DNA of 64,000 bases, taken from Nanohaloarchaea archaeon B1-Br10_U2g21. GTDB taxonomy: Archaea > Nanohalarchaeota > Nanosalinia > Nanosalinales > Nanosalinaceae. Below are positions 11,471 through 52,044 of this stretch, piece by piece. The stretch spans positions 32,001-96,000 of the forward strand of contig LKMP01000001.1 in NCBI GenBank assembly GCA_001563915.1, given 5' to 3'. The translations under genes were made by a program, and so were the position numbers. The notes below the pieces were generated by a model. The model had not been told where the DNA came from. It searched no databases and was given only the letters and a program-made list of their open reading frames with translations. The number at the start of each line of letters is the position of its first letter. The stretch's first letter is position 1.

Positions 11471-11558
11471 GGTAAAACAACTCGCAAATCTATTGGATGC
11501 TGATGTATTTAAGGATAACCAAACCAATCAAAAAATACGGAGACAGGCCTTTAAACAT

Positions 11559-11632
11559 GGGTTCGTGGTCTAGTTGGTTATGACACCGCCTTGACATGGC
11601 GGAGATCCCCGGTTCGAATCCGGGCGAACCCA
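11559..11632 (+). tRNA. tRNA-Val (GAC)
   Basis: Acceptor GGGTTCG/CGAACCC, anticodon arm CCGCC-TTGACAT-GGCGG, T-loop GGTTCGAATCC; no encoded CCA. Confidence 0.97.
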
Positions 11633-11766
11633 TACCCCTGTGGAAAAAAGAAAAGCTAGTGTAAAAATACTAAGGAATAATATCTTTGTCGATAAAAACA
11701 GGGAAAAAGAAGCGTGATATACCTTGCTTCTAAAAACGTTAGTCACTCAAACAATAATACTGAATA

Positions 11767-11910
11767 GGGAAAGTAGCTCAGGGGTTAGAGCGCTGCGCTC
11801 ATAACAATGATTATGAGCAATGAGGAGGTCTAAAAGCCTTCGATGATTAAAGTTCGTATCGCTTTATGTGAGATACGCAGAGGTCCCGGGTTCGATTCCC
11901 GGCTTTCCCA
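11767..11910 (+). tRNA. tRNA with CAU anticodon (probably elongator Met), 71-nt intron at 37/38 (11804-11874)
   Basis: Acceptor GGGAAAG/CTTTCCC, anticodon stem CTGCG/CGCAG, T-arm CCGGG-TTCGATT-CCCGG; BHB with central helix CTCA/TGAG and bulges TAA and ATA. Confidence 0.93.
11804..11874 (+). ncRNA. Intron-encoded C/D-box-like guide RNA, predicted target C34 of its own tRNA
   Basis: Guide TTATGAGC (11811-11818) is antisense to tRNA nt 31-38; D' ATGA 11820-11823; stem-loop; C' ATGATTA 11843-11849; D GTGA 11868-11871. Confidence 0.7.
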
Positions 11911-51810: not shown

Positions 51811-52044
51811 GGGGGTGTAGCTCAGTTTGGGAGAGCGACCGCCTCCAGTAACTGCAGCCAGTGGTTAACAGTGACTGACATTATCCAAAGTGTCTCTGTT
51901 AGAGCTGACTGATCTGGAGGGATGAGGCATTAAAGCCGATGATTAAACCTTTAGAGACATTCTTAGAATGTCTCGTGATAACTAAACTCTTAGGAGTTTG
52001 TTGGAGATAGCGGTAGGTCGCAGGTTCAAATCCTGTCGCCCCCA
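51811..52044 (+). tRNA. tRNA-Trp (CCA), 160-nt intron at 37/38 (51849-52008)
   Basis: Acceptor GGGGGTG/CGCCCCC, anticodon stem ACCGC/GCGGT, T-loop GGTTCAAATCC; BHB central helix CTCC/GGAG with outer AAC/GTT. Confidence 0.94.
51849..52008 (+). ncRNA. Intron-encoded C/D-box-like guide RNA, predicted target C34 of tRNA-Trp
   Basis: Guide TCTGGAGG 51913-51920; D' ATGA 51922-51925; GGC/GCC stem; C' ATGATTA 51939-51945; D GTGA 51975-51978. Confidence 0.75.

Follow-up and report, generated by a model that had tools for sequence, protein, structure and literature searches.

From archaea to humans, the ribose-methylated wobble base of elongator tRNA-Met, Cm34, is made by guide RNAs, and the textbook example of an intron modifying the tRNA that hosts it is that of tRNA-Trp. 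That the tRNA-Trp intron is a guide has reportedly been known since 2001 and this, together with a 2012 report on the tRNA-Met intron of Nanoarchaeum equitans, lowers the novelty of what is described here. The subject is the 71-nucleotide (nt) intron in the gene for elongator tRNA-Met(CAU) in a 64,000-nt stretch of DNA from Nanohaloarchaea archaeon B1-Br10_U2g21. This whole stretch, called the window, corresponds to contig C16:32001-96000 in an assembly of 815,638 bp (24 contigs, 92% complete, 39.4% G+C). Judged from sequence, the intron in the tRNA-Met precursor is probably (we put the chance at roughly 0.68) a minimal box C/D-type guide for Cm34 that is built on one kink-turn and not on the usual two. 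To our knowledge, every characterised natural guide has two kink-turns.

Previously described guides for C34

In Haloferax volcanii, Cm34 is described in exactly two tRNAs, tRNA-Met and tRNA-Trp, and is assigned to fibrillarin and guide RNAs (PMC2584109; PMC4033218). In tRNA-Trp, Cm34 and Um39 are guided by a C/D RNA contained in the tRNA's own intron, and Cm34 of tRNA-Met is guided by a separate, non-intronic small RNA (sRNA), which is called sR49 in Pyrococcus and sR-tMet in the haloarchaea (for both: PMC2584109, PMC4033218, PMC7994747, PMC11408192, PMC4090602). Guides of the haloarchaea are reported to have degenerate boxes and 19–21 nt from D' to C' (PMC2584109). Here, sR49 and sR-tMet share with the unit described below the target base on an intron-bearing tRNA-Met, and the haloarchaeal ones share degenerate boxes with a long D'–C' distance (PMC2584109; PMC4033218). 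They differ in being separate genes (PMC2584109), whereas the nanohaloarchaeal guide would lie inside its target's own intron.

A close counterpart is the guide in the euryarchaeal pre-tRNA-Trp, sR50 (Haloferax volcanii, Pyrococcus). As in the present case, it lies in a 37/38 intron, is antisense to the anticodon loop of its own tRNA and targets C34 (PMC11408192, PMC4090602, PMC7994747, PMC2584109); it uses L7Ae, Nop5 and fibrillarin, and its guide pairing competes with the splice structure. As the reviews describe it, sR50 has both the C/D and the C'/D' motifs and serves two sites, Cm34 and Um39. In contrast, the nanohaloarchaeal unit has one conserved kink-turn, the boxes AUGA and AUGAUUA and a guide of 7–10 nt, and position 39 of its tRNA-Trp is G. 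In Sulfolobus solfataricus, Danan (2012) reported the tRNA-Trp intron as stable, circular and lacking consensus C and D boxes (PMC3326292). It is similar in being complementary, over 7 bp, to positions 34 and 39 of its own tRNA and different in that the account describes no kink-turn unit and two antisense stretches instead of one (PMC3326292).

[quoted passage not shown] The tRNA and the intron site are the same as here and, going by the description, the arrangement of box, hairpin and box is alike. Neither "anticodon" nor "wobble" appears in that report's main text, so no such target is named; the target is left open, and the account contains neither a link to tRNA-Trp nor a comparative survey (PMC3491384). 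This is the nearest precedent, and it was the only earlier report that literature searches for intronic Met guides, or for nanohaloarchaeal intron guides, brought up. The original prediction, made by a model from the letters of the window, had cautioned that intronic guides might already be on record for other DPANN archaea, and the Randau report bears this out.

The putative guide and kink-turn unit of the tRNA-Met intron

The host gene was identified with the Rfam tRNA model, which places a 73-base insertion in the anticodon loop (11767–11910), and with ARAGORN, which calls tRNA-Met(cat) only when introns are allowed. The features of this locus are as follows:

11767–11910, forward strand: elongator tRNA-Met(CAU) gene (Rfam RF00005, 58.3 bits; ARAGORN with introns allowed concurs)
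11767–11803 and 11875–11910, forward strand: exon 1 and exon 2
11804–11874, forward strand: intron of 71 nt at the canonical 37/38 site (Rfam and ARAGORN)
11797–11804, forward strand: predicted guide target, G31–A37 with the first base of the intron; C34, the wobble base, is 11800
11811–11818, forward strand: putative guide TTATGAGC, in which G11815 pairs with C34
11820–11823, forward strand: D'-type box AUGA, the non-bulged strand of the predicted kink-turn
11824–11841, forward strand: canonical stem of the kink-turn (6 bp), GGAGGU (11824–11829), loop CUAAAA, GCCUUC (11836–11841)
11842–11851, forward strand: three-base bulge GAU, then C'-type box GAUUA(AA), also read as AUGAUUA (11843–11849)
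11869–11875, forward strand: 3' strand of the splice helix, UGAG (11869–11872), and three-base bulge AUA with the 3' splice site
11806–11813, forward strand: AATGATTA, proposed outer C box, unsupported as a functional part (not conserved, by eye)
11868–11871, forward strand: GTGA, proposed outer D box, overlapping UGAG at 11869–11872

The putative guide, TTATGAGC, is 8 nt long and is the exact reverse complement of 11797–11804. It is followed by one spacer base and then by AUGA, and G11815 is the fifth base upstream of this box, where it faces C34. All letters that the original prediction had cited for this unit are present as written; the complementarity and the G11815–C34 pair that it had described are exact over G31–A37 and the first intron base, and its reservation that the guide is shorter than the usual 10–12 nt is correct. 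AUGA matches the box D consensus CUGA at three of four positions and AUGAUUA matches the box C consensus RUGAUGA at six of seven. In terms of sequence potential, AUGA, the 6-bp stem, GAU and GAUUA could make up a kink-turn, the register of which is set by the stem and places AUGA against GAUUA as G–A, A–G, U–U and then U–A. In canonical C/D boxes, this fourth pair is G–C. At the splice sites, CUCA (C32–A35) pairs with UGAG (11869–11872), the AUA bulge follows, and a bulge-helix-bulge results, which has a weak inner helix of two to three pairs, by eye, beyond the 5' bulge.

The CAU tRNA at 11767–11910 is the elongator tRNA-Met. The other CAU tRNA of the genome, on contig C4, has no intron and carries an A1–U72 pair and three G–C pairs in the anticodon stem, which we take to be the marks of an initiator. 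Conversion of a CAU tRNA to an isoleucine tRNA requires TiaS, and no member of the TiaS family was found in the genome by a search that matched in four archaeal control genomes.

A sister unit in the tRNA-Trp intron

The same layout is present some 40 kb downstream, in the tRNA-Trp gene:

51811–52044, forward strand: tRNA-Trp(CCA) gene (ARAGORN with introns allowed; not detected by Rfam)
51849–52008, forward strand: intron of 160 nt; C34 is 51845
51914–51948, forward strand: candidate unit consisting of CTGGAGG (51914–51920), G, ATGA (51922–51925), GGC-ATTAAA-GCC, GAT and GATTAAA

In this unit, the fifth base upstream of ATGA is G51917, whose pairing partner is C34 (51845); this is the register seen for G11815 in tRNA-Met. 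The anticodon loops of the two tRNAs differ at positions 31, 35, 36 and 37, and each guide matches its own loop at all four. It had been predicted that the Trp intron repeats the Met layout with a guide altered to its own anticodon loop, and the unit at 51914–51948 fits CCA in just this way. The 3' end of the Trp intron reads GGAG and then AU, matching the splice layout of the Met intron. As for a Um39 guide in the Trp intron, position 39 is G and no second conserved antisense stretch was seen when the introns of the relatives were inspected by eye.

The Trp intron also contains extra hairpins, for example GAGACAUUC-UUA-GAAUGUCUC at approximately 51954–51974, as well as CUGA repeats just upstream of the guide. 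In close relatives, UGAUGG and CUGAUGAUC motifs occur around the unit of the Trp intron.

Conservation across the Nanohaloarchaeota

BLAST searches with the Met precursor matched 40 of 41 relatives' genomes at E ≤0.01, and 54 of 70 genomes of the phylum at E ≤1e-5. An intron-bearing tRNA-Met was called by ARAGORN in 26 of 30 first loci; the misses were two loci cut by contig ends and two mis-calls. The deduplicated set, with later loci included, holds 41 distinct Met and 20 distinct Trp precursors. These were scanned by script for a unit in which the guide core lies at a fixed distance from a strict kink-turn part (NYGA, at least 3 bp of stem, a bulge [AGT]AT and GA[TC]). The unit was found in 40 of the 41 Met precursors and in all 20 Trp precursors, and inspection by eye of the 41st Met precursor (L028) revealed the unit with one stem mismatch. 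In other words, guide and kink-turn are kept in the alignment of introns across the phylum, which the original prediction had named as a check. The counts that follow refer to the 60 parsed units (40 Met and 20 Trp), which were selected by having this unit.

The unit is conserved in five families. Intron length varies between 42 and 292 nt and that of the hairpin insert between 2 and 154 nt, and throughout, the spacer between guide and box is constant; therefore, the fifth base upstream of the box always pairs with C34. Guide pairing covers nt 31–37 in all 40 Met units, and nt 31–36 in all 20 Trp units, 18 of which also pair nt 37. Guide lengths are 6 nt (2 units), 7 nt (10), 8 nt (20), 9 nt (18), 10 nt (8), 11 nt (1) and 13 nt (1). 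The first bases of the intron, AC, are the same as the first bases of exon 2, and pairing counts therefore cannot separate the precursor from the spliced tRNA as the target.

The kink-turn is retained with some variation in its boxes. The D' box is ATGA in 49 units, CTGA in 10 and CCGA in one; the bulge is GAT in 54, AAT in five and TAT in one, and is followed by GATTA (49), GATC (9), GACGA (1) or GATTT (1). The fourth box pair is A with U in 49 units, C opposite C in nine, C–G in one and C opposite U in one, with the C-opposite-C units belonging to sister families. It had been proposed that the two off-consensus boxes compensate for each other, with A–U in place of C–G, thereby preserving the kink-turn. 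This describes the window's family, but it is not a rule, given the nine units with C opposite C. Within the stem, five pair types occur at position 2 and six at position 3, with pairing retained. RNAalifold, applied to 11 short Met introns, returned both the helix between guide and anticodon loop and the kink-turn stem; in 3 of 16 pairs, both sides had changed.

A pattern search of the whole phylum recovered hairpin-forming copies only in Met or Trp introns. One of these copies was labelled Arg by ARAGORN and carries a Trp guide, and another, at a contig end, carries a Met guide; the six pattern matches outside tRNAs have neither hairpin nor guide. Portability, as the original prediction called it, is not supported in any wide sense. 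Outside the phylum, the Met-intron pattern was absent from all 17 genomes of one neighbouring phylum, chosen by way of a relative of fibrillarin, where it has to be borne in mind that the pattern recovers only 24 of 44 known positives; one genome of that phylum (L092) has an intronless tRNA-Met. Taken together, comparative support is strong for what would be an intron-borne, self-aimed wobble-methylation unit common to tRNA-Met and tRNA-Trp.

Two elaborations of the hairpin were seen by eye in the relatives. In Met introns such as those of L007, L008, L012, L014, L077, L080, L081, L082 and L085, the hairpin loop contains UUCUGGA and the 3' tail UCCAGAA, and in the Met intron of L009 the two are swapped (loop UCCAGAA, tail UUCUGGA). 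This suggests a loop-to-tail pseudoknot that is conserved in Met introns of relatives and absent from the short hairpin of the window. The second is a branched insert, approximately CACYGNCUCG...UGCGUG...GUUCGAGAAG, with a small hairpin and CGA, which expands many kink-turn hairpins and is found in Met introns (for example L017, L020, L022, L033) and Trp introns (for example L035, L039, L042, L048) of different genera.

Competing folds and a proposed order of events

In the minimum-energy fold of the tRNA-Met precursor, at –49.9 kcal/mol and with a z-score of –2.34, the guide is paired to the anticodon loop; 4 of 200 shuffles were as stable. When the anticodon stem and the splice helix are forced, the energy is –49.3 kcal/mol. 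The guide-bound and the splice-ready folds are mutually exclusive and have about the same energy, which agrees with methylation preceding splicing, the order that reviews describe for pre-tRNA-Trp (PMC11408192, PMC7994747).

The anatomy of the unit, its conservation, its fixed register, the two competing folds and the three protein genes described below are direct observations, and from these we infer protein binding, methylation and their order. The nascent precursor would fold so that the guide (11811–11818) pairs with nt 31–37 and the first intron base. Starting one base further downstream, the 6-bp hairpin would clamp AUGA and GAU-GAUUA, and these would form the kink-turn. L7Ae would bind to this kink-turn, followed by docking of Nop5 and fibrillarin, and fibrillarin would then methylate the ribose opposite the fifth guide position upstream of the box, converting C34 to Cm34. 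Thereafter, the precursor would refold into the bulge-helix-bulge, in which C32–A35 pair with UGAG (11869–11872), and be spliced. The tRNA-Trp intron would be a sister unit directed at its own C34. A search of sequencing runs returned none that held at least half of the sampled words, and two RNA runs had shares of 0.04 and 0.07.

The C/D proteins and a short Nop5

All three proteins that such a guide would need, and for which the original prediction had proposed a check, are encoded in the genome. Scores are 224 bits for fibrillarin, 172.5 bits for the Nop domain and 93.7 bits for L7Ae, and the three genes share a contig with the window. Nop5 is a protein of 246 residues encoded outside the window at C16:11914-12651 (L002:1408-2148), with the Pfam Nop domain at residues 32–242. 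Its residues 15–245 align to residues 130–375 of the 388-residue Sulfolobus protein (chain 3id5_A), and since the alignment starts only at residue 130, the N-terminal domain is missing.

This short form is a property of the window's family. Here, the Nop5 frames are 247–284 residues long in all 23 genomes that are at least 90% complete, compared with 327–352 residues in four sister-family genomes and 297 residues in one genome of another family. The missing domain was sought elsewhere. The Pfam model NOP5NT was uninformative, as it matched in no control genome; the N-terminal 134 residues of a sister-family Nop5 had no match in the genome, in a search that had no positive control; the 123-residue open reading frame (ORF) that lies just upstream of Nop5 matches nothing in Pfam or the PDB; and no ORF suited to be the missing domain is present in the gap before fibrillarin.

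A structure model of Nop5 with fibrillarin supports binding of the short protein to its partner through residues 1–23. The predicted contact scored 0.71, versus 0.00 for the best of three controls; by approximate count (own alignments were used), 58 of 80 solved complexes and 2 of 110 mismatched pairs attain this mark. Model runs share at least 95% of contacts, and the predicted local distance difference test (pLDDT) value of the partner is at least 91. As Nop5–fibrillarin complexes have already been solved, passing this mark may reflect likeness to them and is not proof. The family with the short Nop5 is also the family with AUGA and GAUUA units in place of CUGA and GAUC, and this co-occurrence is a single coincidence at the level of the clade.

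Weighing the alternatives

Several observations count against a single-kink-turn guide for Cm34. The guides are short, with 7–10 nt in 56 of 60 units, as against the usual 10–12 nt or so in a spacer of about 12 nt. Pairing of the first intron base occurs in only 30 of 40 Met and 11 of 20 Trp units. Only a single kink-turn is conserved, and the C-opposite-C units of the sister families show that the "compensated" box pair is dispensable. Further, the anticodon loop is invariant within each tRNA, and therefore the covariation of guide and target amounts to one Met-versus-Trp contrast inherited by kin. The matching of guide and loop is a single contrast and not many independent events; the predicted reuse of one unit on both tRNAs stands. 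The Nop5 of the window's family lacks the N-terminal domain of about 130 residues that holds fibrillarin in solved complexes. Finally, Hardin and Batey (2006) describe the two-motif design as absolutely conserved in nature, and the single-motif complex that they engineered showed activity only close to 3 M monovalent salt, with non-specific choice of site (PMC1635284).

Were the intron a complete two-motif box C/D sRNA, as the original prediction had it, its boxes would be C, AAUGAUUA (11806–11813), D' AUGA, C' AUGAUUA and D GUGA (11868–11871), and its D' guide would be very short and would overlap box C. The letters are there, U–G or U–A might stand in for the usual G–C box pair, and the Trp intron has CUGAUC right before its guide and GUGA downstream. 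We nevertheless consider this reading very unlikely. The C-like box is absent from L005, L006 and L075 and from most other Met introns, by eye: the corresponding letters are ACAAAGAATTATGAGC in L005, which is 88% identical, and ACAACTTTATGAGC in L006 and L075. Only six bases separate AATGATTA from D', as against 12 in the canonical sRNA of this genome, and no terminal stem of at least 4 bp was found for the Met intron. The 3' GUGA overlaps UGAG, which is needed there to pair with C32–A35 in the bulge-helix-bulge, and pairing with CUCA(U) explains [G/A]UGAG. As the outer C box is not conserved and GTGA is accounted for by the splice helix, the conserved device is the guide with one kink-turn, and the predicted four-box layout is not supported. 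A loose scan for second motifs (GA, GA, 4-bp stem) returned 176 extra motifs in 60 introns, or 2.9 each compared with 1.4 per shuffled intron, with none fixed in position; it is too noisy to prove absence. No second kink-turn in the Trp intron of the window was convincing by eye. The canonical-looking box C/D sRNA just mentioned, the only one found in the genome, lies outside the window at C4:19177-19250 (forward strand) and reads GUGAUGA, a spacer of 12 nt, CUGA, a C'/D' kink-turn closed by a stem, UGAUGA, another spacer and CUGA, within a terminal stem CGG/CCG. Its C'/D' closure, CUGA-GCUU-GAAA-GAGC-AGU-GAUGA, has a stem and a three-base bulge, which supports the view that the motif of the introns is a D'/C'-type kink-turn. 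A loose scan, read by eye, found no stand-alone Cm34 guide with a matching C' box in the genome. A search for targets of the 3' tail of the Met intron, in an assembly that lacks small-subunit rRNA, gave only the tail's own locus on the opposite strand, and the tails are not conserved among relatives, by eye.

It is also conceivable, though improbable, that the unit is a device for folding or splicing that involves no ribose methylation. Here, the antisense stretch would mask the anticodon loop and compete with the splice helix, and the kink-turn would recruit L7Ae to stabilise or time a fold or to stabilise the excised intron. L7Ae binds to kink-turns in other RNAs. The near-equal energies of the two folds, the single kink-turn and the truncated Nop5 of the window's family would all suit such a device, as would the poor performance and low specificity that single-motif complexes show as enzymes in vitro (PMC1635284). 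Yet a mask alone has no need of a fixed, one-base spacer that puts C34 opposite the fifth position in 60 of 60 units on two tRNAs. Moreover, the unit was found only in the two tRNAs in which C34 is described as guide-methylated in other archaea (PMC2584109), and fibrillarin is kept beside Nop5. As for chance resemblance in an AT-rich intron, the short guide and the off-consensus boxes are what might be expected of it. Among 200,000 dinucleotide-shuffled versions of the Met intron, in which the last six bases were kept fixed, 0.32% contained the 8-mer complement and 0.023% a 7-mer complement that was followed, after one base, by NTGA at the correct spacing; the strict kink-turn unit appeared in 153 of 12,000 shuffled introns (1.3%). 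The combined motif ATGAG.{6,60}[CT][AG]ATGATTAA has two sites on both strands of the 815,638 bp, namely the Met and Trp introns, and is kept in five families. On these sequence comparisons, chance is rejected, and we give it next to no weight. The preferred reading remains that of a Cm34 guide on one kink-turn.

A natural single-motif guide?

A broader and more tentative proposal, which we regard as a possibility short of even odds, is that the Nanohaloarchaeota use natural single-kink-turn ("hemi") box C/D guides, a design taken to be absent from nature and so far known only as an engineered complex. The engineered "hemi" complex is alike in having one box C/D motif with one guide and in working at about 3 M salt; it differs in being artificial, with a monomeric Nop5, and in having lost its site specificity, as described by its authors (PMC1635284). 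Salt at about 3 M is the milieu to be expected inside a hypersaline organism, a level that we infer for the cell interior. Specificity could be regained if pairing takes place within one molecule, beside the anticodon stem; or one Nop5 dimer could carry two half-units (a Met pair, or Met with Trp), so that the two-motif architecture is restored from two RNAs. If true, the near-equal folds would be a switch that enforces methylation before splicing, and hemi guides together with a Nop5 that has no N-terminal domain, as in the window's family, would be the most reduced guide-methylation machine described. Such a guide in a hypersaline organism would be an exception to the two-motif rule.

What would be new in the reading preferred here is a whole phylum with the tRNA-Met guide inside the tRNA-Met intron, with the same unit serving tRNA-Trp and built on one kink-turn. 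The interest lies mainly in this single-motif architecture and in its pairing with a truncated Nop5. If active, the unit would test the role of the second motif (site specificity or spacing) and whether high salt relaxes the need for it, and would show how far a box C/D machine shrinks in a 0.8-Mb genome. It would also give the missing target for the stable tRNA-Met intron RNA of N. equitans.

Other tRNA genes of the genome

Introns are present in other tRNA genes as well, as called by ARAGORN. A tRNA-Ile(UAU) with a 54-nt intron lies on contig C24:18966-19092 which, with TiaS not found, suggests that the AUA codon is read by a UAU tRNA in this genome. Decoding of AUA by a UAU tRNA is reported for Nanoarchaeum. 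Further introns occur in Lys(CUU) (61 nt), Asn (18 nt) and Thr(UGU) (14 nt), and the Lys and Ile(UAU) introns have no GAUGA, by eye. Two other calls made with introns allowed, "tRNA-Stop(tta)" with a 34-nt intron (C3:20337-20443, reverse strand) and "tRNA-Ile(aat)" with a 391-nt intron (C16:25734-26215, forward strand), are likely mis-calls of the intron mode.

A tRNA-Val(GAC) gene (11558–11633) lies 134 bases upstream of tRNA-Met. Among the 26 loci of relatives in which tRNA-Met was called, 15 retain the Val–Met pair, every one of them from the window's family, and in three relatives, tRNA-Val has an intron of its own, 63–111 nt in length.

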